Source: a virus
Taxonomy: Duplodnaviria; Heunggongvirae; Uroviricota; Caudoviricetes
Direction: 5' to 3' (one strand)
IMG/VR virus record: IMGVR_UViG_2802429052_000001
Span: 27,845 to 91,844 of that record
DNA length: 64,000 nt
This document shows, piece by piece, positions 1 to 21,976 of this stretch. The notes beneath the pieces were generated by a model. That model worked only from the letters and a program-made list of their open reading frames with translations, was not told the DNA's origin and did no database searches. The first letter of the stretch is position 1. Every line of letters begins with the position of its first letter. A program made the position numbers and the translations under genes.

Positions 1-1286
1 AGCAGCCGAAGGCGTGGATGCTGCTCGCGCAGGCTGATCACGGGATCTTGCTGACAATGGCGGCGAATCTACTTCGGTTGCAGCTGACCAACATTGACAT
101 CGGCACCCTGTTCAAACTGCTCGACCCGGCCAACTGGAACATTCCCGAGCTGGTCGACACATTCCTCAACATCTGGCAGCAGTCGCAAATCGTCATCGTG
201 CCACGCACGTTCGGCGATTCGGTGGCCCCGCTGTCGCTGGTCGTCGGCAGCATCAAGACATCGATCTTCGACGTGGCCGCGCCGATCATGGAAGACGCAG
301 AGCTGCAATGGGATCTGAGGCGCTGGAAGACCGGCGACCCCGAACCGTGGCCTGGCGCAGGCACCAACTGGCGCAACGGCACCCTGTTCGTCCGCATCGT
401 CGACAAGTCCGGTTTCCGCACCGGCACGTCCATCGGCGGCAACCTGGCTACGGGCCTGACTCGCACAATCGCCGATGTGCTGTCGAACCATGTCGAGGAC
501 AGCTACGACCTGTTTACCGGGGACACGATCGACGAGACCGGCTACCGACTGCCCGGCATCCTCGGCACCGAGGCCGCGCACCCCTACGTGACGTACCGCG
601 ACGGCGACATCACCGGCATTCAAACATCGAACTTCTCACGCTCACCCGGTGGGGCAGGGCGTATCACTGTGGGCGGGCAGTCAATGCCCGGCGTGAACGA
701 ATTGATCAGTGCAGCAATTCAATACGGTGGCGATGTTCTGGGGGACAACATCTCGGCCACTATCAGTCTTGCCGTCGGTTTCAACATCAGCGTCGGCTCA
801 CTCGGTGGCGCGATCGATTCGTTTCTCAACCCGATCTACCGCGATTCGATCCTGGCGTTCATGTCGGTACCGCTGCTGTTGCGGACAAGTCGGCAGGGCT
901 GGGGTCACTACCTGGAGACCACGAGTACGAATGTCACACAGGCATTTACTGCGGCCTCGACGATGGATCTGCGCCGACGTCGGCGCGAGACCGACCCCGA
1001 CACCTCGTTCACGCTGACCGTCGCCAACGCTGCGCCGTGGCTGATCGGCGACAACGGCTTTGGGCACTGGTGGAACGGAGATCGGGTCGGCGGCACCAGC
1101 AAGTACCTCATGCCGCGGGTATTCGTGCGCCGCTGCCGCTCCCTGGACATCACCTGGGGTCAGGGCAGAGCGCTGGCAGTCGAGGGCACCTTCGGGGATA
1201 CCCGCCAGGAGAAGGACGCGATCGAGCGCATGGCCGAACTGATGAGCCGCACCATGAGCGGCCTGCAACAGATAGGACTGTGGTGA
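1..1286 (+). CDS. Minor tail protein (5' end outside window)
   Basis: ORF open to window start; weak similarity to C-terminal part of the 568-aa minor tail protein of prophage B; upstream of other tail genes. Confidence 0.55.
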   Translation, partial: QPKAWMLLAQADHGILLTMAANLLRLQLTNIDIGTLFKLLDPANWNIPELVDTFLNIWQQSQIVIVPRTFGDSVAPLSLVVGSIKTSIFDVAAPIMEDAELQWDLRRWKTGDPEPWPGAGTNWRNGTLFVRIVDKSGFRTGTSIGGNLATGLTRTIADVLSNHVEDSYDLFTGDTIDETGYRLPGILGTEAAHPYVTYRDGDITGIQTSNFSRSPGGAGRITVGGQSMPGVNELISAAIQYGGDVLGDNISATISLAVGFNISVGSLGGAIDSFLNPIYRDSILAFMSVPLLLRTSRQGWGHYLETTSTNVTQAFTAASTMDLRRRRRETDPDTSFTLTVANAAPWLIGDNGFGHWWNGDRVGGTSKYLMPRVFVRRCRSLDITWGQGRALAVEGTFGDTRQEKDAIERMAELMSRTMSGLQQIGLW

Positions 1287-1699
1287 CAGAGGGTATCTCT
1301 CCGGAAGAGGCAAAAGCACTAGCCGACAAGGTTGTCGAATCGGAGTTCATTCCGAAGAAGATCCCGGCCGCTGATGACATCGACGGCCAGGTCAAGGCCC
1401 TGGGCGGTGCGCTGGCCTCGGCGCTGCTGACTGCGACCGAGTTGCCGTTGACGGTGATGCAGCCAGTTGTCGCCGACCTGGCAACTCAGCTTGTCGCCCT
1501 GGGCATCCGGCAGACCGAGCACATTGACCCCGCTGCGGTGCACGCGCCGGCCTGGATCACCGATGGGGTACGCCAGGAATCGATCAAGCTGCCCGAGCAG
1601 CCCCAACACACCGAAGCCGATCCGCATGTGGAGATGACCGCCACCGCGCCCAAGTGCCCCAAGCGCATACCCAAGGCAGCCCGGGCGGTGCGGCGGTGA
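1283..1699 (+). CDS. Hypothetical protein (138 aa), GTG start
   Basis: GTG start overlapping upstream stop (GTGA); the downstream gene's GTG also overlaps its stop (GTGA). Confidence 0.4.
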   Translation: MTEGISPEEAKALADKVVESEFIPKKIPAADDIDGQVKALGGALASALLTATELPLTVMQPVVADLATQLVALGIRQTEHIDPAAVHAPAWITDGVRQESIKLPEQPQHTEADPHVEMTATAPKCPKRIPKAARAVRR

Positions 1700-4380
1700 C
1701 CACCCCCGGCGGTGTGTCCAACCTTCCCGTTGGCGCACTGACAGTCGAGACTCTGGCTGAGAAGCTGCAGAACTTGACGCCCGCGGCGATGCGCAACCGC
1801 GCCGCCGAACGCATGCCCGGCACGTTCCACGGCTCCACCGGCGGTGACCCGCTGCAAGACCTGACGCCGTTCGGGATCTTGACGAAGCTGTTCGCCGGAT
1901 TCAATTCCCACGTCGCCAACGCTGACCCGAACGATATTCAGGGCCCCGAAGACCTGCCCGGACTGCTGCTGGACTTCATCGAAAGCCTGCCCGTGGTCGG
2001 CCAGTTCGTTGGTTTGGCCGAGGCGATCATGGGCACCTACGACGGCGACGACGAGACACTGTTGGCGATTCAACAGATCTTCATGCCGATACGCCGGCTG
2101 CTCCAGCTCGCCTCTGGACAGGACGTTGGCTGGCCCACCCTAGAAGAGATTGAAGAGGGTTGGGGCAACCTGTTCGCGGCTATCGCCAAGGCGGTCAGCC
2201 AGTTCTTCAAGGGCGTCATCCCCGCGGCGTGGGTTGCTGATGTCCAGAAGGATCTGACTGACGGTGCCGGCGGATTCACCGACCCGTCGGTGGTCGACGA
2301 TAACCCGGACTGGCACTACGACGCCGCGCAGAACGGGCACCTGTCGGGCAAGTCGATCTACGTCAACGCCGACGGCCATCTGTACGCGATCAGCGTCAAA
2401 GACCCCTTCGAGGTGGCGCCGGGCCAGACCGTCGATATGGCGGCCTCGGCGATGTGGCAGGGCCTCACGGCCACGGCGGGGTCCAATCCGATTCGGCTGT
2501 GCATCACGCCCTTCGGCCCGGACGGCACCAAGCTGCCCGATATCGTCATCAAGCAGATACAGCCGATGGCCGCGGACTCGGCATGGGTGCGCGCCAGCCT
2601 GACTGGCTCATGGACCGTCCCGGCCGATGGTTCGATCAAGTGGGCAACGGTGACATTGGTGGTCACCGAGGGCGCCTCGGGTGGGCCGGTCCATTTCTCG
2701 AACGTCGCCTCGGCGATGTCAAACCTGGGACCGGTGCTGGGTAAGTTCAGATCGTTCTTCGATGCCATTGGTGGACAAGCCAACTCGGGTATCGTGCAGT
2801 TCGAGCAGCGATTCGCCGCGATCACCGCCGACGGCAAAATCACCGCCTCGGAACTGTTGGGCCTAATCGGCCTAGGCAACATTCCGACGTTGCCCCAGGT
2901 CAAGATCCAAGACCTGCAAACCACGTTCAATCAGTTGGGTGACATCTACAACGGCTTGGTGGTAACGCCGATCAACGGATTCGTCGCGGCCATCGCAACG
3001 TGGTTCGGAACCAACAAGGACAAGACCCAGAAACTCACCAGCGGCGGAACCCTGTCCGTCGGAGATGTCGTCGGCAATTTCGATATGAGCCGGGTCGACG
3101 ATCTTGTCGACAACCTCGGCAACATCCTGTCCGGGGTCAAGGACGGCGCCGACGGCGTAGGCACCGGCACCACGGGCGCCATCGGGGACCGCATCAACCA
3201 AGCCAAGGACTCGCTACTGGCGCTACTGGGCCTGTCTCAAGATGCGCTCAAAAGCGCTATCGCCGCACAGACCACGTTGCAAGAGCAGGAGACCGAGCAG
3301 AACACCGGCGACGGCAACAGCTACAGCTTCGTGTTCTCCGGGGCCGACGGTGCCGCACTGAATACGACCGATTGGACCACCGGCCCCACGCCCGGCGATA
3401 TCACCATTCGGGGCGACTCGGGATATGCGGGCGTCAAGAACGGCAACCCTGACGGTTACTTTTTCGCCAGCCCCAACTACACCTATGCCAGCGACGGACA
3501 GTCGGCCTCATTCGTGCTCGGCAACACCCAAAACGGAAACTACTACTCCGGGGTGTTCATTCGCTGCAACGCCGATCGCACCACGGGCGCCTACTGCCTG
3601 GCCAAAGAGGGCGAGGTCCGCGTCGGCAAGTTCACCCGCTCAGGTACCAGCTGGACGTTCGCTACACCGATGACCTTTCAAGGCGGGCTCTCGTCAGTCA
3701 AACAGGGTGCCCGTATCGAAATTCGTTGCAGCGGCAACAACTTCTTTGTTCGCGTGAACGGCAAGCCGGCCACCTCCGCGACCGATGTCGCGGGCACCAT
3801 CGCCGCCGGGCCGGACTATCGATACGCCATGTTCTGTGTTCAGCGCGCAACGTCGTGGTTCACCTACGACTCCTACCGCATCGCAGCATTCGCCATGTCC
3901 GATTACAGCCCCTCGGGAGGTAGTGCCACCTTGTCGAACGCGTGGAGCCTAACCCGCTCGTCCACTTCAGGTTTCACCTACACCGACCCCATCACCTCAG
4001 CGGGCCAGCTACCGGCGTCGTTCTTCACCTTCACCGACTACGCCAATGGCGCCACCATCACCGACCTTGGCCGAGGCGCGGTGACCGTGGACCAAGCCGG
4101 GCTCTACAAGCTGGCGACCACCTGCCGCCCATACTCGGCCAAGGGGCCGGTCACCCCGCATTGGTGCCTGTACCGCAACGACGTTCAGGTCACCGGAGCC
4201 ATCGGCCCCGGCGCCGAATTCGAGATCCTGCTCAACGCGGGCGACAAGATCCAACCCGCCCTGATCGTCGTCGATTACGACGTGCGCTCAAACGGCTCCA
4301 CCGGCTCGGAAACCGTTGTCTCGCGCACCATCACCCAAGTATTCGGCGTGGCCTCCTTCACCGGCCGAAAACTCATCTAA
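1696..4380 (+). CDS. Minor tail protein, large (about 894 aa), likely receptor-binding
   Basis: About 80% identity over the N-terminal two-thirds to B 23894..26341; C-terminal beta-rich domain divergent; GTG start with GTGA overlap. Confidence 0.75.
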   Translation: MTTPGGVSNLPVGALTVETLAEKLQNLTPAAMRNRAAERMPGTFHGSTGGDPLQDLTPFGILTKLFAGFNSHVANADPNDIQGPEDLPGLLLDFIESLPVVGQFVGLAEAIMGTYDGDDETLLAIQQIFMPIRRLLQLASGQDVGWPTLEEIEEGWGNLFAAIAKAVSQFFKGVIPAAWVADVQKDLTDGAGGFTDPSVVDDNPDWHYDAAQNGHLSGKSIYVNADGHLYAISVKDPFEVAPGQTVDMAASAMWQGLTATAGSNPIRLCITPFGPDGTKLPDIVIKQIQPMAADSAWVRASLTGSWTVPADGSIKWATVTLVVTEGASGGPVHFSNVASAMSNLGPVLGKFRSFFDAIGGQANSGIVQFEQRFAAITADGKITASELLGLIGLGNIPTLPQVKIQDLQTTFNQLGDIYNGLVVTPINGFVAAIATWFGTNKDKTQKLTSGGTLSVGDVVGNFDMSRVDDLVDNLGNILSGVKDGADGVGTGTTGAIGDRINQAKDSLLALLGLSQDALKSAIAAQTTLQEQETEQNTGDGNSYSFVFSGADGAALNTTDWTTGPTPGDITIRGDSGYAGVKNGNPDGYFFASPNYTYASDGQSASFVLGNTQNGNYYSGVFIRCNADRTTGAYCLAKEGEVRVGKFTRSGTSWTFATPMTFQGGLSSVKQGARIEIRCSGNNFFVRVNGKPATSATDVAGTIAAGPDYRYAMFCVQRATSWFTYDSYRIAAFAMSDYSPSGGSATLSNAWSLTRSSTSGFTYTDPITSAGQLPASFFTFTDYANGATITDLGRGAVTVDQAGLYKLATTCRPYSAKGPVTPHWCLYRNDVQVTGAIGPGAEFEILLNAGDKIQPALIVVDYDVRSNGSTGSETVVSRTITQVFGVASFTGRKLI

Positions 4381-4402
4381 CACACCACAGGAGAACTCAC
4401 CC

Positions 4403-4708
4403 ATGACCACGCCCGAAGCACCAGCCACCGTCGATGACAACGAGGATCTGACAGACCCCCCGGCCCCCTCGCCCACCCCGGATCCACCCGCGCCAGAACT
4501 GCCGCAAGAACCGCCCACGCCACCCCAGGCGGCGCAGATCCCCGAGCCGAGCACCACGTTCACCATGCCCGAGCTGCCCGGAATCACCTTCGCTGTCGTG
4601 CGTGGCGGCTTGGACATCGACGGCAAGCTCAACCCGTCTTGGATTCAGATCACCGGCACTGACAGCGAGGGTGCGATAGTGTCCCGCATAGGATTCGCCG
4701 GGCCCTAA
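4403..4708 (+). CDS. Small proline-rich tail-associated protein
   Basis: AGGAG RBS upstream of ATG; PxP-rich N-terminus; within tail gene block. Confidence 0.5.
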   Translation: MTTPEAPATVDDNEDLTDPPAPSPTPDPPAPELPQEPPTPPQAAQIPEPSTTFTMPELPGITFAVVRGGLDIDGKLNPSWIQITGTDSEGAIVSRIGFAGP

Positions 4709-4709
4709 C

Positions 4710-5864
4710 GTGCCCTGGTCCACCAGCCCGACCGTTGCCGCCACGCGGTCGGGCGGTAAGTGGTCGGTCAATCCGGCCGTGCCAGCTCCCGCACCAAACG
4801 GCCGGTGGCACGCCATCATCGGGATCGACGCCGCACTGGCAGTGATGTGTGTCGGCGAGGTCGAGCTGACCGCCATGCAAGCCATGGGCGTGGTCTTGTC
4901 GGTACACCTTGACCGCGAGCTGGCGTTGGCCGCTGTGTACCAGCTGGCCGCGCAACGCTCGATCCTCATCACTCGCAACCTTGCGCTACAGGCCACATTC
5001 CAACAAGACCTCGCGCTGGCCGTCACCATGGAACGGGCCCTGTTCCTGGCCAAGGTCATCGGGTGCGGCCTCGCACAGGCCGTGAGCATGACCGGCACCC
5101 TCGACCTGGCCCGGGTAGCCCCGATCGACCTGACGCGCAACCTCACGGCGCCGCGCTCGATCAGTTTCGACAAACTGCTACCCGTCGACCTGACACGCAC
5201 CGTCTCGATGTCCTCGGCGCTGGCGATCGAGCGCGTCGCCAAGATCGACGCCGCACTGACGGTAACCATGACGCGGGCATGCAGCCTCGGTTATCCGCCA
5301 GGCGGGCTGCCCACGCTGGCCACCTACACCACGGCCGGGGCGTTCACTCACAACATCGTGCGCAACTGCGACTTCATGGACTGCGTTGGGTGCGGTGCCG
5401 GAGGCGGCGGGGGTGGCGGTGACGGCGGCCTGGGCAGCACCGGACAGGGCGGCCGTAAAGGCGCATGGAACGCGCGCACCGTGGCCCGCAACATCGACAT
5501 CCCCGGCTCCGCATTGACCCTGACCGGCATGGTGGGCGCGCCCGGAGCCGCGGGGGCCAAGGAGAAAGACGGCGGCGCCGGCGGTGACACCACATTCCTG
5601 ATCAACGGAATCACCACCACGTGTGCCGGCGGCGCCGGCGGTAAAGGCGCCTACGCCGGCAACGGACTCAACCAGCCCGGCGAGGCTGCGGGCAACACCA
5701 CCCTCAACGGCCAGACCTACACCGGCGGCGCACAGGCAGGCACCAACACCAACGGCAACTCACCCGGAGGTGGCGGCGGCCCCGGCTCGGGCGGCGCCTT
5801 CGGAATCGCCAACCCCGGACGCCTCGGCGGAACGGGCATAGCACATATCCGGTCCTACCAATAG
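4710..5864 (+). CDS. Minor tail protein with glycine-rich (collagen-like) C-terminus
   Basis: N-terminus MPWST matches B 22839..23894; poly-Gly tracts GGGGGGGDGG. Confidence 0.65.
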   Translation: MPWSTSPTVAATRSGGKWSVNPAVPAPAPNGRWHAIIGIDAALAVMCVGEVELTAMQAMGVVLSVHLDRELALAAVYQLAAQRSILITRNLALQATFQQDLALAVTMERALFLAKVIGCGLAQAVSMTGTLDLARVAPIDLTRNLTAPRSISFDKLLPVDLTRTVSMSSALAIERVAKIDAALTVTMTRACSLGYPPGGLPTLATYTTAGAFTHNIVRNCDFMDCVGCGAGGGGGGGDGGLGSTGQGGRKGAWNARTVARNIDIPGSALTLTGMVGAPGAAGAKEKDGGAGGDTTFLINGITTTCAGGAGGKGAYAGNGLNQPGEAAGNTTLNGQTYTGGAQAGTNTNGNSPGGGGGPGSGGAFGIANPGRLGGTGIAHIRSYQ

Positions 5865-5878
5865 AAGGGAAAACCATT

Positions 5879-6262
5879 ATGGCATGGGGAATTTCGTCCT
5901 ACCTGGCGAACAAACTGCTCGATCACATCTGCCGCAACGTCGCCTACACACCACCGGCAACCGTGTACGCCAAGATGCACACCGGCGATCCCGGCGCGAA
6001 CGGAACGGCTAACGCATCCTCGGTGGCCACCCGCTACGCCTGCGCGTTCAACGCGGCGGCAGCCGGGTCGATCAGCCAATCCAACACCCCCGAGCACACT
6101 CTCGGCGCCACGGAAACCATTGCCGGGGTGTCATTCTGGGATCACCCCACGGCCGGGAACTTCTTGTGGTCATCGCAGGCCGCCGCCTCCAAGTCCGGTG
6201 CCAGCGGCGACATCATCCGCATCAACACCGACACCCTCGCACTCGGCCCGCTGGCGGCATGA
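5879..6262 (+). CDS. Minor tail protein (127 aa)
   Basis: RBS-like GAAGGGAAAA upstream; loosely similar to B 21979..22341; last tail gene before lysis cassette. Confidence 0.5.
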   Translation: MAWGISSYLANKLLDHICRNVAYTPPATVYAKMHTGDPGANGTANASSVATRYACAFNAAAAGSISQSNTPEHTLGATETIAGVSFWDHPTAGNFLWSSQAAASKSGASGDIIRINTDTLALGPLAA

Positions 6263-6405
6263 TGCGCCGCCAGCTGCTCATCTATCCGGCCCTCTACCTC
6301 GCCGTGTTCGCCGTCGCGTTCCGCCTCGGCTGGTGGGCATCCGACCAGCTCTCTTCCTACGCACAAGAAATCGACCCACGCATCGAAAAGGAGTACACCC
6401 GATGA
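6259..6405 (+). CDS. Small membrane protein (48 aa) translationally coupled to lysin A
   Basis: ATGA overlaps at both ends; one TM helix; close homolog at B 21833..21976. Confidence 0.5.
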   Translation: MMRRQLLIYPALYLAVFAVAFRLGWWASDQLSSYAQEIDPRIEKEYTR

Positions 6406-7091
6406 CCACCGTGATCACGAAACTCAAGGCCCGCGAGGTTGACAACTTCTGTCGCGCCCGCCGCGGCTTGCCGTACGCATTCGGTGGCGCATTCAGTACC
6501 GACCCGAAGCGCTCCACCGACTGCTCGGGTCTGGTATTGCAGACCGGCGCGCTGCTGATGGGGCGCACCGACTGGTCCGGAAACCGCTACGGCTCAACGG
6601 AATCGTTCCGCTTGAACTACCCGATTGTTTTCGACATCGGGTTCAAGCGACTGCCCGCCGGCGGCGTGAAGGCGTTGGGTTTTGCGCCGATCATGCTCGT
6701 CGGGTTACAGCACGGCGGCGGCGGCGAATACAGCCACACCGCGTGCACACTGTTCTACGCCGATGCTCCCGGCGGTGAGATCAAACAGTCGGTGCGCGGT
6801 ATTGACTGGGAGAGCCACGGAAACCGCAACGGCGTCGGAGTCGACTACTACGACAACGCCCGCGCCTGGAATGACCCGCTGTTCAGCGACTTCTGGTACC
6901 TGGATGCCAAGCTCGAAACCGCTGCCACCCCTGCAACGCCACAGCCTGTCATCGTGGGGCCCGCTGACGATCAGCTCAACATGCAGTGGAACTGCCTCGG
7001 CGGCCAAACCCTCGTCGAGGCCGTCGCCCAGATCCGAGACAAGGTGTGCGGCACCGCAGATCGCAGCAAGGCCGGGGTGGTGCTCCGATGA
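6402..7091 (+). CDS. lysA: Lysin A, NlpC/P60-type cysteine peptidase
   Basis: DCSGLV catalytic Cys context, conserved His downstream; AAAGGAG RBS; upstream of lysin B. Confidence 0.7.
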   Translation: MTTVITKLKAREVDNFCRARRGLPYAFGGAFSTDPKRSTDCSGLVLQTGALLMGRTDWSGNRYGSTESFRLNYPIVFDIGFKRLPAGGVKALGFAPIMLVGLQHGGGGEYSHTACTLFYADAPGGEIKQSVRGIDWESHGNRNGVGVDYYDNARAWNDPLFSDFWYLDAKLETAATPATPQPVIVGPADDQLNMQWNCLGGQTLVEAVAQIRDKVCGTADRSKAGVVLR

Positions 7092-8323
7092 GCGCGCGGC
7101 TTCCGCTCAAGCCCGGGTCTTCGGATGCGCGCGGTGACGACGTGTCGCACTGGCAGCGGTGGGGCAAGCAGTACGCCTCGGCGTACGGAGACCTCATGGG
7201 TCCGGTGGACGGGTACTACGGAAACGGTGATGCCGCGTTCACCCGAGAGATGCAGCGCCGACTCGGATTACCGCAGACCGGTGTATTCGATGAGCTGACC
7301 GCCAGCCGGGTCGGCTATGGCGGCACCGTGGCTCCACGCCCGCGCCGCAAGATCTGGTTGTATTCCTCGCCGGGCTCGGGAGCAGATTGGAACGTGGGTC
7401 CGAGCTTCGCCCTCGGCGAGTGGTGCAAGGACGTGCTCAAGATCAACCATCAACCGCTGTCATTCCAAAAGGGCGGCTACCTCGGACTGCTCGGCGGCGA
7501 TGCGAAATTCAGCTACAACGAGGTCACCTACGACCAGTACAAGTCGCTGCAGTACTGCCTCGACCACAACCCCGACATCAACGACCCGGATCTCGAGCTG
7601 TGGTTTTCCGGCTACTCGCAATCGGCCGACGGCATGGAGGACGCACTCGAAATCCTGTTCGGCGACGGCGGTTTCATCCATCCCGGCGACCCGACGCGGA
7701 CACCTTCGCCTCCCGGCAAGTACCGGCATCTGCGCGACCGGATCAACGGCGTGGTCCAGTTCGGCAACCCCTCGACACCCGTCACGGGCATCGCCCGCAA
7801 GGCGCGGCCCGCGTGGCTGGCCAAGCTGGTGCGCAACGTCAACGCCCGGAACGACTTCTACGCCGTCGCGCCAGACAACATCCGCCCGGCGTTCTATGCG
7901 ATCATCGTGCAGGCCGAGCTGGAGCTGCCGTTCTTCGTACACGTACTGCGCATCGCGGTACCCATCATCACCGACTGGGCCACCGCGGCGCTGCCAATCA
8001 TCGGCCCGCTACTCGGCGGGTTCGGCCCCATGGCGCAAATGGGCCTGGGCATGATCTCCGGTCTACAGGGGATGGGGCAGAACCCCCTCTTTGGCAACCT
8101 CATGGGCCAGGCCGGATCCTCGCGCGATACCAAGGTCGACGACGATCTGCGCCGGCTGCTCTCGCCCACCGGAGTACTACAGAACATCCCCGGCCTCATC
8201 GCCCTCATCGCTGCACTACCCGGCCTACAAGCACACGGCGAATACCACCTGCCCAAACCCGAGTTCGGCGGCCGGGACGGCATCGCGGTCGCCTACGACA
8301 TCATCGCCGGATTCCGCCGATAA
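7088..8323 (+). CDS. lysB: Lysin B, mycolylarabinogalactan esterase (cutinase-like) with N-terminal peptidoglycan-binding domain
   Basis: PG-binding-like N-terminus, GYSQS serine-esterase motif, ATGA coupling to lysA; hydrophobic Gly/Met-rich C-terminal extension. Confidence 0.65.
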   Translation: MSARLPLKPGSSDARGDDVSHWQRWGKQYASAYGDLMGPVDGYYGNGDAAFTREMQRRLGLPQTGVFDELTASRVGYGGTVAPRPRRKIWLYSSPGSGADWNVGPSFALGEWCKDVLKINHQPLSFQKGGYLGLLGGDAKFSYNEVTYDQYKSLQYCLDHNPDINDPDLELWFSGYSQSADGMEDALEILFGDGGFIHPGDPTRTPSPPGKYRHLRDRINGVVQFGNPSTPVTGIARKARPAWLAKLVRNVNARNDFYAVAPDNIRPAFYAIIVQAELELPFFVHVLRIAVPIITDWATAALPIIGPLLGGFGPMAQMGLGMISGLQGMGQNPLFGNLMGQAGSSRDTKVDDDLRRLLSPTGVLQNIPGLIALIAALPGLQAHGEYHLPKPEFGGRDGIAVAYDIIAGFRR

Positions 8324-8498
8324 GCCTGGCATAGCTGGACTAGCCCGGACGGTCGAGCACGTGAAGTAGTCCACCCAAAACCCCAGCACAACGGCAGTGG
8401 TGGACGAAATAGCCGAAAACATACCGGGATCTATACCGGGCTACTCATGACCTGCACTGTTTCCGGTTTTGATCACGAAAATGAGAGGACAACCAACC

Positions 8499-8711
8499 AT
8501 GCCCAACGACAACGTACGCCTGGCAATCCACGCTGCGAGTCTGCTCGTCTTCATTATCGCGGTGGCAGTGCTCGTCGCTCTCGATAAGCTCCAGAGTGGC
8601 GATGGCCTGACGTGGATCGTCACCGGCGCCGGTCTCATCACAGCCGGGCTCTCCACAACCAAGATGATTCAGGACCGGCGCGGCAACGGGCCGGACGGGT
8701 CGGCTCAGTGA
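8499..8711 (+). CDS. Holin-like membrane protein (2 TM)
   Basis: Two hydrophobic helices, charged C-terminus, GAGGA RBS, position after lysins. Confidence 0.5.
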   Translation: MPNDNVRLAIHAASLLVFIIAVAVLVALDKLQSGDGLTWIVTGAGLITAGLSTTKMIQDRRGNGPDGSAQ

Positions 8712-9070
8712 TCCTGCCATCAATCCCGATCACCGAATGGCCCCCACTGCCTCCGCTGGCCCGCGACGGATGGGAACTGGCCACCTGGATCGTCATCGCC
8801 CTGGTCGTGCTCGTCCTCGGCCTGTACCGCAAGGATCTTCGCGCCGTGCTCCACCAGGTCAAGAACAGCCACAAGACCAACCTCCGCGACGACGTGGACG
8901 GAGTTGGTGACCGACTCGACGACGTGCTCGACCGGCTCGAAGAGTTCGGCCGCGACCTGCGCGGAATGCGCTCCGATATCGGCGGCCTACGCGGCGAGTT
9001 GAGAGAAGAACGCAAGGACCGCTTAGCATTCGAGCACCAGGTAACAGAGAAGCTGCGCGACTCAAACTAG
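8708..9070 (+). CDS. Membrane-anchored coiled-coil protein (holin/lysis regulator candidate)
   Basis: GTGA overlap with upstream holin; TM helix then charged coiled coil with DIGGLRGE motif shared with B 18991..19353. Confidence 0.5.
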   Translation: MILPSIPITEWPPLPPLARDGWELATWIVIALVVLVLGLYRKDLRAVLHQVKNSHKTNLRDDVDGVGDRLDDVLDRLEEFGRDLRGMRSDIGGLRGELREERKDRLAFEHQVTEKLRDSN

Positions 9071-9082
9071 CCGACCGGAAAC

Positions 9083-9117
9083 GGCCCTGCTCAAATCCAC
9101 TGAGCAGGGGCGTTTTT
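9083..9117. terminator. Rho-independent terminator between convergent lysis operon and toxin cassette
   Basis: GC hairpin CCCTGCTCA..TGAGCAGGG followed by TTTTT. Confidence 0.55.
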
Positions 9118-9130
9118 CGCCGTCTATCGG

Positions 9131-9877
9131 CTAGTGAGATACCTCATCGAGACCATTTTCCCGCAGCGTGGCCGTCATCGCCTCGACAACCCTTGCGGCC
9201 GGCCAATCATCCGGCGCTGAAATCAACGTGCCCCCGGCCAGCTCAGTCGCGGTTAGCCGGTCAACGAGATGGCTGACCGTACCAACCTCGGCGCTGATCC
9301 ACATTCGGTAGCCGACGCCGATCTTCCAGTTGCCACGACGAGCGAGACGACGCACTGCGAGATCCGCGAATTCGGTGGTTGCGGGCTCCCACGTCTCGAC
9401 CACCGCAGCTGTTACGGCGTCGGCATCCACAGACCGCAGCGCGTTCTCATGCGCTTCACGGAGCTCGACTGCCAGACGGCGGCGAGGTAGCCGCTGTCCG
9501 ACTGCTGGGTGACCGGCTGCGATACGCACCAGAGGGGAAACACGGGGGCCTGCGCCCGAAATGGTGAAGGAGTAACCCTCACCGGGTAGCGCATCACCGA
9601 TATCTTCCGAGGCCCCTACGAATTCACGAACGGGATGTTTGCGAACTATGTTGACCAGTTCGTCGGGGGAACCTTCCCACAGTTCCCAATCGTTGTCGGC
9701 CGCAATCTGCCAGCTCGATACGTCGAACGCTGATTGCAACGAACGGAGCAGGCTGTCGGTGCGTGCGGCGATCCATTCGGGAGATTCGCCAGCTGCTACC
9801 CGGAGAGCGAGCAGCGACGGCCGCGATGCGCCCCAGACTGGGTTCTGCACCTCGTTCACAGCTGCCACCTCACTCAT
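9131..9877 (-). CDS. Putative immunity protein for toxin 9874..11892
   Basis: Start overlaps toxin stop (ATGA); position and coupling typical of immunity genes; no recognisable domain. Confidence 0.5.
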   Translation of the reverse strand: MSEVAAVNEVQNPVWGASRPSLLALRVAAGESPEWIAARTDSLLRSLQSAFDVSSWQIAADNDWELWEGSPDELVNIVRKHPVREFVGASEDIGDALPGEGYSFTISGAGPRVSPLVRIAAGHPAVGQRLPRRRLAVELREAHENALRSVDADAVTAAVVETWEPATTEFADLAVRRLARRGNWKIGVGYRMWISAEVGTVSHLVDRLTATELAGGTLISAPDDWPAARVVEAMTATLRENGLDEVSH

Positions 9878-11892
9878 GGTTTCGGAGTGTAGATGACCTC
9901 TACACCGTAGACACCGTTTGAATCGAACAGGTCACGAAGGGCCGCGGCACCATAGGGATCGGATACGTGCCACTCAAGTCTCGCACCTGGTGGGAGCGCG
10001 CCGAGCTGTCGGTCAACTTGTTCGAGCGCCGACTCTGCCCGCCCCGTCCAGTACGCGTTGTCCGGCGCGAACGCCAAGCCCCGAAAGCCGTCCTTTGCTT
10101 CGAGAAAGACCTCTTGCGGGCCGCGATAGGTGTGTCCGTCGAAGGAAACTGGGGCTCCCGTATCTAGGTCATGTTGCACCCATTCGGGCAGTGCTCCGCT
10201 GGGTGTTCGTTCAATTCCGCCGATTTGTTCCTGGTACGGCATCCAGTCTTTGTCGAAGTTGTGGTTGATGTGCTTCCAGCCTGGCTCGGTGTCGCCCTTG
10301 TTCCATGTGGCCTCGGGGGTGCCGGGCGGCCATCCGCCCGGGTGGTGCGGGTCCCCGGAGGTGTAATGCTGGCCGCCGCCAGGATCGAACTCATATGGTG
10401 CGGGCGGCTGATACGACGGCGGGGTGTGGTCACCACCTGCTGAGGGGGCCTGATGGTCCATCACGGGCCAGGAATGCGCGCCGGCGCCGGGCTGCTCGAC
10501 GTGCGCGGACGTCGGTTCGTGGGTGCTGGATAGATCGTGGGTGATGGCGCGTCCTTCGGTGCCGGTGAGGTCGCCGAGCAGTCCGCGCGCACCGGCTGCC
10601 GCTTCGCCTCCGATTGCCCCGCCTCCGAGGGCTTCGGTGCCGTGGATGATGTTTTTGCCGATGAACTCGCCGGGGTGGTTGTAGAACTCTTTGGCTTGTT
10701 CGATGCCCATCTTGGGCGCGGCCAGTGGATCGCTCGTCAGCTCGTGAACCTGTTTGACTGCGCCCAGGCCTACGTCTTTCCATGCTTCGGCGACACCGGG
10801 AGCGCCCGGACCTGCTTGCCCGGTAAGAACTTTCGCTTGTTCGATCTGGCCGTCAATGGTTTTGGTGGCCTCATCGTTAGCGCGGCCCACGATGTCGTTG
10901 AACTGATCACCGGGTGAGTTATGCAGCGGCACCTGACCAGGGGTGCGCATCGGATCGGCGTCGGGGGCAAAACGCGGTGCCTGCGCCCGCTGGACCGCCT
11001 CATTGACCCGCTGCTCGATCTGGTTGGCGGGCACACCCTCGTGTTGCAGGCGCTCGCGGGTCGCCTGGGCGAACGCGGGAACATCGCGATCGGCCAAGGT
11101 GGGGGCGAGCTTGGCCGGTTTGGTCTTGTCGATATCCCCCACACCGGGCATGGCCCCGATGCTGCCGAGCTGATGCCCATCCACCGACGCGGTTTTCGGG
11201 TACAGCTCTTTGTAATTGATCGTCTCCGGGCCGCTGGCGGCTGCGGCTGGGGTGGTGCTGGCCGGGTCGGTGGCCTTGGGGTACTGCTGTTTGTAGTCGA
11301 TCGTCTCGGCTGCTGGTTGGCCTGGCGTGGCCTCGCGCAGGATCTTGCGCGCATCGACTAGGGCCGCTTTGGGGTTGATGCGGGAGAGCATTTTCTCGCG
11401 CGCGGCATCGGTCTGTGTCTTGAGTTCTTGGGTGGCCTTCTCCCACTTGGCGACATACTCGCGTAGTTCGCGCTCAGCGTCAGCCACGATCTGTTTGTTG
11501 CGGGCCACCGACTTTTCGCTTTCACCCTCAGCCGGGTGATAGGTCATCGTGAAGTCTTGACCGACCGTGACGCCCTCGCGCAACGCGTTGGTGACGATGT
11601 TCTGCCCGCTGGTCAACGGTGGCAACACCTCGAACTCGATGGTGGCGCTGACGAGCTTGACAGCATCTTCGGTGGTGTCGTCGGCGTTATCGGTGCCCTT
11701 GCAGTCATCGGCGGCGGCTTCCTGGGCGGCGCCCGCGAATTGCCCAGACCAGTAGGTTCCGTTCGGGGTGGTGGCCCACCGTTTGTAGTCGTCGTAGGTG
11801 GCTTTCAACGCCGCTGTGCGCGGCCGCAAACTGTCCACCACCGCCATATAGTCGTTGGCCTTCTTGGCCATGAACTCATCGAGGATTGTCAC
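9874..11892 (-). CDS. Polymorphic toxin (672 aa) with WXG100-like N-terminal domain (YWSGQ), Pro-rich linker and C-terminal toxin domain of unknown fold
   Basis: GTG start with GAGG RBS; N-terminal helical domain containing W-x-G; long low-complexity linker; distinct C-terminal about 120 aa. Confidence 0.65.
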   Translation of the reverse strand: MTILDEFMAKKANDYMAVVDSLRPRTAALKATYDDYKRWATTPNGTYWSGQFAGAAQEAAADDCKGTDNADDTTEDAVKLVSATIEFEVLPPLTSGQNIVTNALREGVTVGQDFTMTYHPAEGESEKSVARNKQIVADAERELREYVAKWEKATQELKTQTDAAREKMLSRINPKAALVDARKILREATPGQPAAETIDYKQQYPKATDPASTTPAAAASGPETINYKELYPKTASVDGHQLGSIGAMPGVGDIDKTKPAKLAPTLADRDVPAFAQATRERLQHEGVPANQIEQRVNEAVQRAQAPRFAPDADPMRTPGQVPLHNSPGDQFNDIVGRANDEATKTIDGQIEQAKVLTGQAGPGAPGVAEAWKDVGLGAVKQVHELTSDPLAAPKMGIEQAKEFYNHPGEFIGKNIIHGTEALGGGAIGGEAAAGARGLLGDLTGTEGRAITHDLSSTHEPTSAHVEQPGAGAHSWPVMDHQAPSAGGDHTPPSYQPPAPYEFDPGGGQHYTSGDPHHPGGWPPGTPEATWNKGDTEPGWKHINHNFDKDWMPYQEQIGGIERTPSGALPEWVQHDLDTGAPVSFDGHTYRGPQEVFLEAKDGFRGLAFAPDNAYWTGRAESALEQVDRQLGALPPGARLEWHVSDPYGAAALRDLFDSNGVYGVEVIYTPKP

Positions 11893-11902
11893 GGCTGGAG
11901 CC

Positions 11903-12214
11903 TCATGCGCGTTGCGGCGGCTGATAGATGCTCGGCAACTTGTAGTACCCGGCGTGCAGCTGCTCGGTGGTCAAGAAGCCTCTGTGTGCCTCGTCGTATA
12001 CATCGCTGATCGCCTCCAGGCGAGCGGCGGCGATGCGCTCCACATCCGAGATCGCTTTCGAGAAAGCCTCAAGCGCCGCCAAACCCGGATCCGCCCCAGG
12101 GGTCACATGGTCTGCCGGGATACGCCCCCGGATCTGCCTGGCACTCTCGCGCAGGTGCGGACCAATCTTGGCCATCGCGTCAAGGTCGGCCTGCAACACC
12201 TTGTCATCGCTCAC
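11903..12214 (-). CDS. Small alpha-helical accessory protein (WXG100/Lap-like helper candidate)
   Basis: GTG start with AAGGGGG RBS; about 100 aa helical protein immediately upstream of toxin. Confidence 0.4.
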   Translation of the reverse strand: MSDDKVLQADLDAMAKIGPHLRESARQIRGRIPADHVTPGADPGLAALEAFSKAISDVERIAAARLEAISDVYDEAHRGFLTTEQLHAGYYKLPSIYQPPQRA

Positions 12215-12330
12215 ACCTGCCCCCTTGCCCGATCTGGTTACGGGGCAGACTACAGGCACAGTAGGAAACCGGTCGTGCAATGCCGATCACCGGGCGGCAA
12301 TCTGTCAACAGCAGCGGGGTTGCCCGGGGC

Positions 12331-18990: not shown

Positions 18991-19353
18991 TTAGTGTGGC
19001 CAGCGCTCGATCAGCTCTCGGATGTGCTGGTCTGCCCTCCCGCGCTCGGTGCGCTCGGTTCGCATTTCCTCGCGCAGGCCTCCGATGTCGCGGGCCTGCT
19101 GGCCCTGTTGTTCCTCGATTCGCTTGATCCCCTTGAGAATTTCGTCGAGATCAACGCGCATGTTGGTCTCATGGTCGTTCTCGGTCTGCTCACGGATGGC
19201 TCCGGTATCGGCGGCGATAGCGCCCAGCTTCTTACGGTGCGCGAACGTGGCCGTGGCCCAGGCCACCGCGACCGATCCGCAGATCGGGGCGAGTAGCGCC
19301 ATCGTGAGTGCCGCGAACTGCTTTGGGGTATCGATGCTGCTGACATCCACCAT
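18991..19353 (-). CDS. Membrane-anchored coiled-coil protein (homolog of A 8708..9070)
   Basis: TM helix plus coiled coil; DIGGLREE motif; follows holin. Confidence 0.5.
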   Translation of the reverse strand: MVDVSSIDTPKQFAALTMALLAPICGSVAVAWATATFAHRKKLGAIAADTGAIREQTENDHETNMRVDLDEILKGIKRIEEQQGQQARDIGGLREEMRTERTERGRADQHIRELIERWPH

Positions 19354-19367
19354 TTCGGTCAGCAGGC

Positions 19368-19664
19368 TCACCGGCCGCTGCCCGCCACGAGCTTGAACAG
19401 GCTGGACGGTACGACCGCCTTGGTGGCCGAGGCGGTACCGGATCGGCCCAGCTTGATCGATGCCGCAGAGAAGATGAGCGATACCGCCAGCGTTCCGGCG
19501 CCGACATTGATACCGCTCTGCCAATCGATCTCGGTCAGGGCTGCGTTCACCGCGGCGTCGGCCAGGTTGGCGCCGACGATGAAGCCACCCGCGAACGTCT
19601 TGATAGCGCGCTCGGCAGCGTCAATGGCGGCGTCTTTGAGCCAGGGCGGGATAGTGATGTGCAT
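19368..19664 (-). CDS. Holin-like membrane protein
   Basis: GAGAGGA RBS 6 nt before ATG; amphipathic/TM segments; unrelated in sequence to the holin-like gene of A. Confidence 0.5.
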   Translation of the reverse strand: MHITIPPWLKDAAIDAAERAIKTFAGGFIVGANLADAAVNAALTEIDWQSGINVGAGTLAVSLIFSAASIKLGRSGTASATKAVVPSSLFKLVAGSGR

Positions 19665-19995: not shown

Positions 19996-21180
19996 CTAAG
20001 CCGCCACGGCGGGGGTGCGGCTGGCCCAGTCGCGGACGTGCTGGATGGCGAGCCCGAGATAGGTTTGGCCGGGCCAGACCTCGCGGTACTCGTATTGAAT
20101 GTGTGCGGCGGTCGGTGGGCTGGTGGTGACGAAACGCAGCGCGATCAGGGCGGCCTGTGCCGCGGCCGCGGGCCCGGTGAGCTTGTTGATATCGCCCCAG
20201 CCGAGTAGTCCCTGTAGACCGCCGAGGACTATGGGTAGGCCGAGCGCGGCGATACCGTTGGGGCCGCCAGTGAGCGCGCCGAATATGGCGGGCAGCTCGA
20301 TGCCTAATGCCTTGGCGGCGATTTCGGGGATTTTGGGCAGGATGGCGCCTGCGGCCCCGAGTGGGTCGGTGATCTGGAATGCGGTCACCATGTCGAAACA
20401 GTCGTCCATGATGTCCCCGACAACACCGAGGGGGATGTTGCCGTACATGTCGCCGGGGTCGGTGAGCCAGCAGTGCCGGTAGTCGGTGATGTCGCCGTAG
20501 CGCCGTGACGAGATGCCTTGCCCAGCAAGGACCGGGCCGCCGTAGTAGCTGCCACCGTGGGGTCGGGTGGGGTCACCGATGCTGAATGAACACAGGTAGT
20601 TGTTCGGGTAGTGCTCCAGCAGCCACACGCGGAATCTGGCCGCCGCGACGGCGCCGGCCGAGTATCCACCGATGACGACCTTGGTGTTGGGGTTGGCGCG
20701 GTAGCGCTCCAGGAAGATGCGCTGTGCGTCGGCGACCGCGATCTCGACGGCCTTGGCCATTGAGATGTCACCGGGGCTGCCCGCGGCGCCGACCGGCAGA
20801 CCGCCCATGGTCGCGGCGAATTCGGGGTGCACTTCCTCGACGAGGTTGGCCACCGCTTGCATGACGCGAGATACGTAGTCCTGGCCGATGATGCCTCCGG
20901 TGCCCCGGAACATCAGCCCGAGGTGGCGATTGGCGGGCGGGGCCGGGGGCGTGATGCCCAGCGCGCGTAGGTCATCGTCGGACACCTGCCCGGTGGGGAT
21001 CTGGCCGGTGCGGCGCTGATACTCGGCGGCCCACAGGGCAGCACGCGGCCCGAACTCGTCGGTGTCTTGCGGAAGCGGCCCCAACAGCCGGGTGTACAGC
21101 GGGCCAAACCAGTCGTTCATCACGGCCCGCCACCGACGGACCGTTTCATTGCGGTCTCCGATGCGGATCATTTGGACCAC
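19996..21180 (-). CDS. lysB: Lysin B, mycolylarabinogalactan esterase with PG-binding N-terminus
   Basis: GYSAG serine esterase motif; PG-binding-like N-terminus; overlaps lysin A stop. Confidence 0.7.
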   Translation of the reverse strand: MVQMIRIGDRNETVRRWRAVMNDWFGPLYTRLLGPLPQDTDEFGPRAALWAAEYQRRTGQIPTGQVSDDDLRALGITPPAPPANRHLGLMFRGTGGIIGQDYVSRVMQAVANLVEEVHPEFAATMGGLPVGAAGSPGDISMAKAVEIAVADAQRIFLERYRANPNTKVVIGGYSAGAVAAARFRVWLLEHYPNNYLCSFSIGDPTRPHGGSYYGGPVLAGQGISSRRYGDITDYRHCWLTDPGDMYGNIPLGVVGDIMDDCFDMVTAFQITDPLGAAGAILPKIPEIAAKALGIELPAIFGALTGGPNGIAALGLPIVLGGLQGLLGWGDINKLTGPAAAAQAALIALRFVTTSPPTAAHIQYEYREVWPGQTYLGLAIQHVRDWASRTPAVAA

Positions 21181-21836
21181 ACCTTGTCACGCAGCGTCAT
21201 ACCTTTTGATGCCCAGTCGGGATGTCCCGGGCCGAGTTGTTCGGCGATGTATTCCAGTAGCTTGCGGTCGGGAGCTTCTTTGACGAATTTCTGGTGTAGC
21301 GCAATAGGATCGACCGCCGGGGGCTGCGCGGGCGCGTAGATTCCGAGGTATCCGGCGCGCAGCTTGTCGGCGAACGCGTCATTGCGTTTGTCGCCCTCGG
21401 GCCAGGCCATCTGGTAGTGCATCTCGTCGGGGCGCGACCAGTCGCGGCCCCAGAACACCGAGCCCTCGAACAGGGCCAGGCCCTTGCGGACCTTGGCCTG
21501 TGTGGCGGCGTCCATGGTGTACCGCTGCCAGGGGTACTTGGGCGCCATCACGTCAACGGCTGTGGCCGACAGGTGATTTGATCCGTCGTTGCGCCCGGGA
21601 GTGCCGAGCACGTCATTGTCGAGTGACCAGCCCCATACTGGGGAGGTGATCTCCTCGACGTTGCGGTCATACCAGTACAGCCAGGCGCCGAGGATGATCA
21701 GCGGGGCGCCCTTGCGCAGGGGCGCGGTGTCGACGAGGTACAGCTCGGGTATGCGTACAATGTCGCATTCGTCCCGATTGCAGCACCGCCAGCCGTCCTC
21801 TGTGTGGGTGTTGCCGTTCACGGTGCGGAAACTCAT
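21168..21836 (-). CDS. lysA: Lysin A, LAS/M15-type zinc peptidase domain (SNHLSATAVD ... HYQM)
   Basis: SxHxxxxAxD and downstream His motifs typical of M15/VanY-like peptidases; ATGA coupling to upstream small membrane gene. Confidence 0.6.
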   Translation of the reverse strand: MSFRTVNGNTHTEDGWRCCNRDECDIVRIPELYLVDTAPLRKGAPLIILGAWLYWYDRNVEEITSPVWGWSLDNDVLGTPGRNDGSNHLSATAVDVMAPKYPWQRYTMDAATQAKVRKGLALFEGSVFWGRDWSRPDEMHYQMAWPEGDKRNDAFADKLRAGYLGIYAPAQPPAVDPIALHQKFVKEAPDRKLLEYIAEQLGPGHPDWASKGMTLRDKVWSK

Positions 21837-21976
21837 CGGGTGTACTTCCTTTCGATGCGTGGGTCGATCTCTTGGGCGTAGGACGAGAGCTGGTCGGATG
21901 CCCACCAGCCGAGCCGGAATGAGAGGGCGGCAAGTGCGGCGTAGAAGGCCGCGTATTTGAGCAGCTGGCGGGCCAT
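21833..21976 (-). CDS. Small membrane protein (48 aa), homolog of A 6259..6405, coupled to lysin A
   Basis: MARQLLKYAAFYAALAALSFRLGWWASDQLSSYAQEIDPRIERKYTR; about 75% identical to the A copy. Confidence 0.5.
   Translation of the reverse strand: MARQLLKYAAFYAALAALSFRLGWWASDQLSSYAQEIDPRIERKYTR

Follow-up and report, generated by a model that had tools for sequence, protein, structure and literature searches.

In phage Ms6, a small gene directly upstream of lysA encodes Gp1 (gp23), which is described as a soluble protein that aids the export of LysA through the host secretion system (PMC9671378). Deletion of a gene for a Gp1 homologue (gene 29) in the F1 phages Girr and NBJ was without lysis phenotype, and the chaperone role has been questioned (PMC13056207). 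Proteins of a different kind, LysF1b / LysA2b and LysZ, carry a single transmembrane domain (TMD), are encoded in actinophage lysis cassettes and are required if lysis is to be efficient; the target of LysZ is a polymer of the host envelope, lipomannan/lipoarabinomannan (LM/LAM), and not the endolysin. Descriptions of LysF1a/b, LysZ/LysY and the D29 lipoprotein date only from 2025-2026, and the route of the endolysin to the cell wall as well as the number of accessory factors needed for lysis of the mycobacterial envelope are open questions. Here, we report on a small gene that is present twice in a stretch of 64,000 nucleotides (nt) of IMG/VR record IMGVR_UViG_2802429052_000001 (positions 27,845 to 91,844, hereafter the window) and that, like the gene for Ms6 Gp1, is located directly upstream of a lysA gene.

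The window consists of DNA from Mycobacterium (Mycobacteroides) abscessus and contains two convergent prophages, A (plus strand; 95.6% identity to prophiGD05-3 in the region around 5.8-8.3 kb) and B (minus strand; 100% identity to prophi52-1 in the region 19.9-22.4 kb). In prophages of the M. abscessus/chelonae group, the lysis module begins with the small gene, and genes for LysA, LysB, a holin-like protein and a LysF1b/LysZ-like protein follow. It represents the one constant element at the head of lysis cassettes that are otherwise shuffled freely among the prophages of this drug-resistant pathogen.

Two related small genes in unrelated surroundings

The two copies and their notable parts are:

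6259..6405, plus strand: small gene A, 48 amino acids (aa) from the ATG at 6259 or 47 aa from the ATG at 6262, MMRRQLLIYPALYLAVFAVAFRLGWWASDQLSSYAQEIDPRIEKEYTR; open reading frame (ORF), coding sequence (CDS) in prophiGD05-3, phrog_27408 with E=6e-25
6319..6405, plus strand: region for the near-invariant 28-aa tail F20..R47 plus stop, 81/87 nt match to copy B
6388..6393, plus strand: AAGGAG, Shine-Dalgarno sequence for lysin A, contained in the final codons of the small gene and 8 nt ahead of the ATG at 6402, read from the sequence
21833..21976, minus strand: small gene B, 47 aa, MARQLLKYAAFYAALAALSFRLGWWASDQLSSYAQEIDPRIERKYTR; CDS PROPHIGD52-1_65, phrog_27408 with E=1.1e-23

An initial annotation of the window had described a 48-aa gene upstream of lysin A in both cassettes. 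This length applies to copy A when it is counted from the first ATG; the GenBank start of the prophiGD05-3 gene is the second ATG (6262, 47 aa), and copy B encodes 47 aa. The same annotation had assumed ATGA coupling at both ends of both copies. This is correct for copy A, whose start lies within the stop of the upstream gene (gcATGATGcgc) and whose own stop shares bases with the lysin A start (cgATGAcc). In copy B only the 3' junction is of this type, with the ATG of lysin A overlapping the TGA of the small gene, and the 5' junction reads TAG-tc-ATG with a 2-nt spacer.

The encoded proteins share 36 of 47 residues (77%), close to the 75% originally estimated, and the DNA is 85% identical. When the gene is divided, 40 of 57 nt agree in codons 1-19 and 81 of 87 nt from codon 20 to the stop. 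Identity in the flanks amounts to only 16% for the upstream gene, 17% for lysin A and 20% for lysin B. With tblastn E values between 1e-12 and 1e-26 over the 58 phage records that contain the gene, the similarity of the small genes lies far beyond chance. As Shine-Dalgarno sequence, GAAAGG or GAAAAGG is retained in most of the variants listed. The segments at 6319..6405 (plus) and 21833..21919 (minus) also form an 87-bp inverted repeat, with a longest perfect run of ~29 nt and ~15.5 kb between its arms; recombination within it would invert the intervening segment and swap the lysis/attR ends of both prophages.

The small ORF is a protein-coding gene under purifying selection

For an assessment of coding capacity, 84 loci were compiled (80 from IMG/VR, two from GenBank and the two window copies), comprising 54 distinct 144-nt sequences, and the proportions of synonymous (pS) and nonsynonymous (pN) differences were determined for codons 20-47 in 52 distinct sequences. 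In the frame of the small gene, pS is 0.38, pN is 0.04 and pN/pS is 0.10, none of the 52 sequences contains a stop, and a premature stop occurs in only one of the 84 loci. The frame of lysin A has a pN/pS of 1.76 and stops in 13 of the 52 variants, while the other four frames yield values of 0.36-3.6 and each contain stops. The small ORF is therefore a real protein-coding gene that is under purifying selection in its own frame only, and its initial description as a coding gene heading both lysis cassettes is borne out. Synonymous diversity of the 3' part, which encodes the tail, is as high as in the variable half of the gene (pS 0.38-0.41 in the tail), which means that conservation acts at the protein level.

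These values also dispose of several other explanations. Identity of the tails due to nucleotide-level conservation or recent spread is ruled out by their synonymous diversity. An alternative-frame product or an N-terminally extended lysin A is ruled out by the pN/pS of 1.76 and the stops in 13 of 52 variants, and the antisense frames are likewise unselected. The initial annotation had pointed out that the other frame reads RLVGIRPAL..RPTHRK in both copies. This reading indeed exists, in the lysin A frame upstream of the lysin A start, because the nucleotide sequence is conserved, and in view of the same values it has no biological content. A programmed frameshift that would fuse LysA to the hydrophobic segment was rejected as well, since the tail-coding sequences show no conserved slippery heptamer and stops accumulate in the lysA frame. 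Neither was a conserved RNA structure detected by RNAalifold in 44 distinct 3' ends of the small gene (-7.6 kcal/mol compared with -8.0 +/- 2.8 for column-shuffled alignments; z=0.13).

A few copies are damaged or altered. One locus (L067, ~4001..4144) has a TGG to TAG change at W24, one protein (P0068) is a frameshifted 55-aa product running into the alternative frame, and one locus (L014) bears a G23D substitution. Such rare cases indicate that the small gene can occasionally be lost without the prophage vanishing from genomes.

The family is confined to Mycobacteroides prophages

Both proteins match PHROG 27408 ("unknown function") with residues 3-47 aligned to positions 7-51 of the 52 profile positions, so that the gene belongs to a family that is already catalogued and has no assigned function. 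Pfam and NCBIfam contain no match to the small protein. The CDS is annotated in 58 phage records (among them PROPHIGD52-1_65, PROPHIGD05-3_68 and PHIGD57-1_23); GenBank labels A and B "hypothetical protein" and several relatives "membrane protein". A tblastn search (E<=10) of 50,697 phage records returned 58 real hits, all from M. abscessus (pro)phages, and one chance hit from Streptomyces; no relative of the small gene was found among the M. smegmatis phages, Ms6 or Cluster F phages in this set. A profile search of 1.84 billion representative proteins gave about six short true clusters and otherwise low-complexity matches, and only two of 185,579 species-representative genomes (M. franklinii and Mycobacterium sp. 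D16Q14) carry the family. The 64 clusters at 90% identity have M. abscessus, M. chelonae, M. immunogenum, M. franklinii and unclassified "Mycobacterium sp." as named sources. Apart from these few unclassified isolates, the family is confined to Mycobacteroides prophages. The family is not discussed in the literature consulted, and a survey of M. abscessus prophages (PMC8092301) does not mention lysis genes.

The tail stays constant while the neighbouring genes change

In the deposited records of both prophages the gene order is the same, with minor tail proteins, a hypothetical protein of ~120 aa, the 144-nt CDS, lysin A, lysin B and holin/membrane proteins. The neighbours in the window are:

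5879..6262, plus strand: last gene of the tail region of A, 127 aa, Gp80-like fibre protein; Pfam PF23140 with E=3e-36, phrog_240
6402..7091, plus strand: lysin A of A, 229 aa, cysteine peptidase of the C40/NlpC-P60 type; PDB 9HYR with E=1e-78, phrog_317 endolysin
7088..8323, plus strand: lysin B of A, 411 aa, PG_binding_1 domain at the N-terminus; coupled to lysin A through ATGA
8469..8711, plus strand: holin-like membrane protein of A after lysB, 80 aa; "membrane protein" in prophiGD05-3, phrog_22367
8708..9070, plus strand: 120-aa protein of A, last in the cassette, LysF1b/LysZ-like by position and appearance; weak DUF2746 match
18991..19371, minus strand: 126-aa gene of B after the holin, positional counterpart of 8708..9070
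19368..19664, minus strand: annotated holin of B, 98 aa; coordinates carried over from the annotation of the 100% identical prophi52-1
19996..21171, minus strand: lysin B of B, 391 aa, cutinase/lipase-like
21168..21836, minus strand: lysin A of B, 222 aa, M15 (LAS-type) zinc peptidase; Pfam PF13539, phrog_1512 with E=1e-81
21979..22341, minus strand: upstream gene of B, 120 aa; phrog_240 with E=2e-31

The genes upstream of the two small genes are only 16% identical to each other and yet both belong to phrog_240, which bears the label "head protein". The product of 5879..6262 matches Pfam Gp80 (fibre protein of podophage GP4), and GenBank lists both as hypothetical; components of the distal tail or of a fibre are their probable products. 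At the other end of the cassettes, the product of 8708..9070 begins with a hydrophobic stretch and is charged in its C-terminal region, and by its appearance this gene would be the LysF1b/LysZ-like gene of cassette A, as 18991..19371 would be that of cassette B.

The catalytic domains of the two lysin A proteins are unrelated, as had been noticed at the outset. Residues 1-173 of the protein from A align with the N4 domain of D29 LysA (PDB 9HYR, E=1e-78), which was assigned to C40/NlpC-P60 in the paper on this structure, and the triad residues C41, H112 and E137 are conserved; no Pfam model, NLPC_P60 included, matched it even when the limit was set to E<=10. For lysin A of B, residues 83-143 match Peptidase_M15_4 (PF13539) at 34.1 bits (cut-off 25). 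No similar segment was found when the two were compared by BLASTP, and on reading neither shows an obvious hydrophobic or signal-like segment at its N-terminus. A short C-terminal motif is common to otherwise unrelated lysins. It reads W..LGGQTLVEAVAQIRDKV in A (6918..7088) and LGNASLVDAVAQVRAS in the M15 lysin of phiGD57-1 (L083, ~4060..4114), phrog_6707 and phrog_1512 match it at their C-terminal ends as well, and it could be a common wall-binding or docking segment.

Neighbourhoods were surveyed in 69 distinct contexts, in which at least five upstream classes are combined with at least five kinds of downstream gene. The tail of the small protein occurs in two alleles. Wherever a downstream gene is called behind the more common type-1 tail, the two overlap by (A/G)TGA, and type-1 loci contain a GAAAGG/AAGGAG Shine-Dalgarno sequence in the last codons of the small gene. 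What follows is an M15 lysin of ~210-222 aa, a C40 lysin of ~225-229 aa, a 463-aa lysin or a small "MKW.." gene (48-94 aa, soluble) and then M23-type or other lysins of 400-427 aa. Among cassettes with the same tail, lysin B and the two TMD genes downstream vary as well. Next to one and the same tail, the holin-like protein has 80 aa in A (MPNDN..) and 98 aa in B (MHITIPPW..), and the second genes encode 83, 120 or 126 aa. On the upstream side, the N-terminal allele of the small protein tends to co-vary with the upstream gene's class, and the start of the small gene overlaps the upstream stop in many loci; four contexts lack a substantial upstream ORF abutting the small gene. The exchange of lysin A is ordinary phage mosaicism by shuffling of modules, for which the small gene provides the hinge with its conserved 3' end. 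As judged from its sequence, prophi62-3 is a natural recombinant at this hinge: it is 97% identical to A up to the exact last base of the small gene and continues with B-type LysA/LysB.

The second (type-2) allele, ..AANYISDRMDNYDPRIGEGKYGW, is rarer and is not accompanied by an ATGA overlap. Its skeleton is FxLGWWA..(I/L)S..DPxI, or in fuller form FxLGWWA(A/S)(N/H)Y(I/L)SDR(M/I)D..DPxI..GK(Y/H)GW. It was encountered in L083 (3004..3150), L085-L089, L100 and L106-L109, where the accompanying lysin is either an M15 lysin of 318 aa or a "M(V)TTKDQVAQ" lysin of ~400 aa. The type of tail was not seen to co-vary with lysB or holin, and type 2 can occur together with the same lysB and holin as are present in prophage B.

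The additional "MKW(L/I/P/F).." gene stands between small gene and lysin A in relatives with 400-463-aa lysins (L016, L018, L019, L025, L029-L031, L034, L054, L064 and L081, ~4141..4300-4425). Its product is helical; in each of the 11 loci the gene is coupled by (A/G)TGA to the small gene, and where inspected it overlaps the next lysin A. A tblastn search yielded no relatives outside M. abscessus prophages, a second query returned nothing either, and no function is annotated. If position and size are taken as criteria, a Gp1-like protein is more plausibly sought in "MKW.." than in the small hydrophobic gene. In prophiT36-1 (L084, 3480..7129 in a 110.8-kb record), the small-gene homologue is lengthened to 76 aa and directly followed by three consecutive genes annotated as tyrosine integrases, which replace lysin A, as if an element with three recombinases had been inserted at the hinge.

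The prophages themselves are arranged tail-to-tail, with A at ~1..12264, B at 14205..~64000 and a gap of ~1.9 kb. Phage-like similarity of A stops at ~12264, and the end of the prophi52-1 record maps to 14205. At the end of each prophage, a leftward polymorphic-toxin/immunity/WXG cassette adjoins attR. No tRNA was found within 9-20 kb of the window. The same paired arrangement, with two oppositely oriented small genes ~14 kb apart, is also present in IMG/VR 2795386027_000001 (L007/L043) and 2795385758_000004 (L010/L047).

A variable hydrophobic segment and an invariant tail

The architecture of the small protein was derived from an alignment of 44 members and from all distinct sequences. A short positive segment, M-(M)-R-R/A-R-Q, is followed by a hydrophobic segment of 12-16 residues that falls into few allelic classes. 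The 19 N-terminal residues are variable yet hydrophobic, with an average pairwise identity of 47% over the N-terminal 16 residues of the family. The tail, FRLGWWASD(Q/R)LSSYAQEIDPRIE(R/K)xYTR, reaches 89%; its consensus can be written FRLGWWASDQLSSYAQEIDPRIExxYTR (27-28 residues). Invariant positions are F20, G23, W24, S31, I37 and I41, the least conserved ones, 43-44, lie nearest the C-terminus, and 9 of 27 residues are charged. Small residues precede the invariant F at -1 (100%), -3 (90%), -6 (87%) and -10 (90%). Among 89 distinct N-termini, -1 is A/S/G in all, and -3 is A/G in 90% and A/G/T in 92%, the rest being V or L.

The initial annotation had regarded the protein as spanning the membrane once. 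A transmembrane span is uncertain in both copies: the uncharged stretch comprises 16 residues in A and 13 in B (K7 to R21), and on the Kyte-Doolittle scale the best window of 19 residues averages 1.87 in A and 1.03 in B, with a usual threshold of ~1.6. The best 19-mer of B-type proteins sums to +4.6 kcal/mol in a simple calculation on the Hessa scale. The segment also has the traits of a Sec signal peptide (positive n-region, h-region of 7-15 residues, small residues at -1/-3), with an h-region of 12-16 residues; since small residues also occupy -6 and -10, on one helix face, the -1/-3 pattern is not specific to a cleavage site. As the flanking charges are +2 on the N side and -2 on the C side, an orientation with the N-terminus inside and the C-terminus outside (N-in/C-out) is predicted, which would place the conserved tail outside the cytoplasm. 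AlphaFold2 (AF2), supplied with the family alignment, predicts a helix from residue 2 to 35, a break at D38-P39 and a second helix from 39 to 46 (mean predicted local distance difference test score, pLDDT, 80). The hydrophobic segment may be either a stable anchor or a signal that is cleaved at the AxA-like site before F20. A lipoprotein was considered and rejected: the Cys of some alleles has no lipobox before it, and other alleles have Tyr instead.

Possible functions of the small protein

With moderate confidence, we favour the explanation that the small protein is an N-in/C-out membrane or secreted peptide that has a conserved host envelope partner and serves as an accessory lysis factor, its gene being coupled to the downstream lysis gene. 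The positive N-terminus would stay inside and the hydrophobic segment would insert, presenting a face of small residues, so that the tail would be located on the outer face of the plasma membrane, either anchored or released by cleavage before F20. There, its partner would be a conserved component of the host envelope or membrane and not lysin A, and the small protein would help or time the breakdown of the envelope. The Shine-Dalgarno sequence in the last codons and the overlap of the stop with the next start, (A/G)TGA, imply translation of the downstream lysis gene by coupling. Because the tail remains constant while fibre gene, lysin A, lysin B and holin-like genes are exchanged, a conserved host component is the most likely partner, and an outward-facing tail, replaced neighbours and occurrence in a single host clade together make an envelope target the simplest reading. 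The fixed place at the head of the lysis module and the obligatory coupling render an accessory role in lysis the best guess.

Several points weigh against this explanation. The argument for a role in lysis is drawn from position and coupling, and comparisons with Pfam and NCBIfam (no match) and PHROG (unknown function) provide no homology link to any characterized lysis protein. Insertion of B-type proteins into the membrane is doubtful (13 uncharged residues, +4.6 kcal/mol), and the type-2 tail allele occurs without ATGA coupling. Each cassette already contains holin-like and LysZ/LysF1b-like genes, so that an extra factor is not obviously needed. Moreover, the 5' half of the small gene travels with the upstream tail-fibre-like gene, which makes a tail-related role possible, and in F1 phages deletion of genes just upstream of the lysis cassette caused no lysis phenotype (PMC13056207).

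The last two observations lead to the alternative that the small membrane protein does not take part in lysis at all and belongs to the tail-fibre module or to another late function, such as exclusion, that merely abuts the lysis cassette. The overlap of its start with the upstream stop in many loci is compatible with this, as is the dispensability for lysis of genes just upstream of lysA in F1 phages (PMC13056207). Still, it is the conserved half that adjoins the lysis genes, the coupling to them is invariant, and in four contexts there is no substantial upstream ORF abutting the gene. A 47-aa membrane peptide is not known to have a role in tail assembly, and we regard a function outside lysis as very unlikely. 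A chaperone for lysin A like Ms6 Gp1, which binds the enzyme and delivers it to or through the membrane, had been suggested initially. The gene is indeed located directly upstream of lysin A and translationally coupled to it, and neither lysin has an obvious signal-like segment, so that some export route is needed. As one and the same tail is found ahead of five or more kinds of gene that are unrelated, it cannot be co-adapted to one LysA; the LysA proteins of A and B have no detectable segment in common, and in 11 of 84 loci a different small gene follows instead. In addition, the tail is predicted to be extracytoplasmic, tblastn found no homologue in Ms6 or Cluster F phages, and the Gp1-homologue deletions in Girr and NBJ were without phenotype (PMC13056207). 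The chaperone proposal is therefore not upheld, and we consider it highly improbable. The invariant (A/G)TGA overlap of all type-1 loci and the Shine-Dalgarno sequence within the last codons would equally suit a cis-acting leader or arrest peptide, whose tail stalls the ribosome over the overlapping start until membrane insertion pulls it free. SecM and MifM combine a hydrophobic N-terminal segment with C-terminal arrest, and here too a hydrophobic segment precedes ~28 conserved C-terminal residues, which is about the length of the exit tunnel. Nevertheless, no conserved mRNA structure masks the Shine-Dalgarno sequence and start (z=0.13), the type-2 allele retains FxLGWW..S..DPxI without overlap, the C-terminal-most residues (43-44) are the least conserved ones of the tail, a Pro-rich arrest motif is missing at the end, and in a protein of 47 residues the hydrophobic segment would hardly have emerged from the ribosome by the time translation terminates. 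Ribosome arrest thus appears hardly credible.

Other alternatives keep the tail outside the cytoplasm and change its state or its partner. If the first 19-20 residues were a Sec signal peptide cleaved after A-x-A/S/G, a free 28-aa peptide (FRLGWW..YTR) would act on the envelope outside the membrane. The positive n-region, the h-region of 12-16 residues, the residues at -1 (A/S/G, 100%) and -3 (A/G, 90%) of the 89 N-termini and the onset of conservation exactly at +1 agree with such processing. The hydrophobic stretch of B-type proteins (13 residues) is short for a comfortable transmembrane helix, and the GenBank depositors gave neither A nor B a membrane label. On the other hand, the small residues at -6/-10 reflect a helix-face periodicity that is unspecific for cleavage, many variants lack a polar c-region or helix breaker, the AF2 helix runs unbroken across the putative site, and the GWW just past it is typical of an interfacial membrane anchor. 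Signal peptides of 19 residues are also short for actinobacteria, and secretion of a free peptide is, in our estimation, somewhat unlikely. Alternatively, the protein could be an antiholin or another holin-regulating partner that binds the phage's own holin-like proteins and sets the timing of lysis. In T4, RI does so by binding the holin T in the periplasm. Location of the gene in the lysis cassette, a helix face of small residues suited to helix-helix packing and a predicted N-in/C-out architecture like that of small periplasmic antiholins are consistent with this function, and two-component regulation of lysis by TMD proteins is established in mycobacteriophages (PMC13056207 and a D29 preprint). 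However, the holin-like genes beside identical tails differ, and an invariant tail would need dissimilar partners, which weakens the case; furthermore, the hydrophobic segment, the part most likely to contact a TMD, is the variable part of the protein. We therefore judge regulation of a holin to be unlikely. A more specific version of a host-directed role, which we consider quite unlikely, is that the tail is an effector on or at the outer face of the plasma membrane that binds a Mycobacteroides-specific envelope component and thereby weakens the envelope or licenses lysis; a cell-wall synthesis, lipoglycan or secretion factor would be a candidate target. If true, the gene would be a small "protein antibiotic" module behind which any endolysin cassette could be plugged, and it would reveal an envelope vulnerability specific to Mycobacteroides along with a compact 28-aa tool. 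If the accessory lysis factor that we favour turned out to have no lysis phenotype, the gene would be one more small conserved phage ORF.

Comparison with known lysis systems

What is new here is the selection pattern, the two-part architecture, the independence from the type of LysA, LysB and holin, the role as a hinge and the narrow host range; the exchange of endolysin domains as such is textbook mosaicism. Ms6 Gp1 has 77 aa, whereas the small protein has 47 aa with a hydrophobic N-terminus and a predicted external tail. No relative of the small protein was found by tblastn in Ms6 or Cluster F phages, and it is independent of LysA type.

The single-TMD proteins LysF1b/LysA2b/LysZ comprise ~120 aa or more, are encoded after lysB/holin and have long charged helical domains, and the small protein, with its 47 aa and its place upstream of lysA, bears no sequence similarity to them. 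LysZ has a disordered N-terminus, a transmembrane helix, a long body of alpha-helical structure, a linker rich in Pro and a helix at the C-terminus and is encoded by the last gene of its cassette (McKitterick et al.). In contrast, the small protein is the product of the first gene and consists of 47 aa with predicted helices at 2-35 and 39-46. LysF1b / LysA2b have ~124 aa, an N-terminal TMD in N-out/C-in orientation and a highly charged cytoplasmic C-terminus, and their genes follow a gene for a protein with two TMDs; size, position and the N-in/C-out orientation predicted from charge all differ in the small protein.

In its predicted topology, the small protein resembles T4 RI and class III holins (one TMD, N-in/C-out). 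In this topology, a short cytoplasmic N-terminus is followed by a single hydrophobic segment, which may serve for anchoring or be released as a signal, and by a functional domain on the outside. Homology is lacking, and the external part of the small protein is much shorter, with ~22-27 residues compared with ~70 in RI and ~160 in T; no conserved cognate holin is present. With holins in general, the small protein has in common a charged, hydrophilic C-terminal part (the tail) and a gene that adjoins the endolysin gene.

The lysins themselves fit into the modular mycobacteriophage endolysins, whose N-terminal peptidase domains were catalogued by Payne and Hatfull (2012). Those of A and B are single-domain versions of known LysA modules (N4/C40 and M15), and the exchange of modules between related phages is an established pattern. 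They differ from the usual modular endolysins in being short (222-229 aa, with one catalytic domain and a short C-terminal segment), and the junction at which they are exchanged is the stop/start overlap of a conserved upstream gene.

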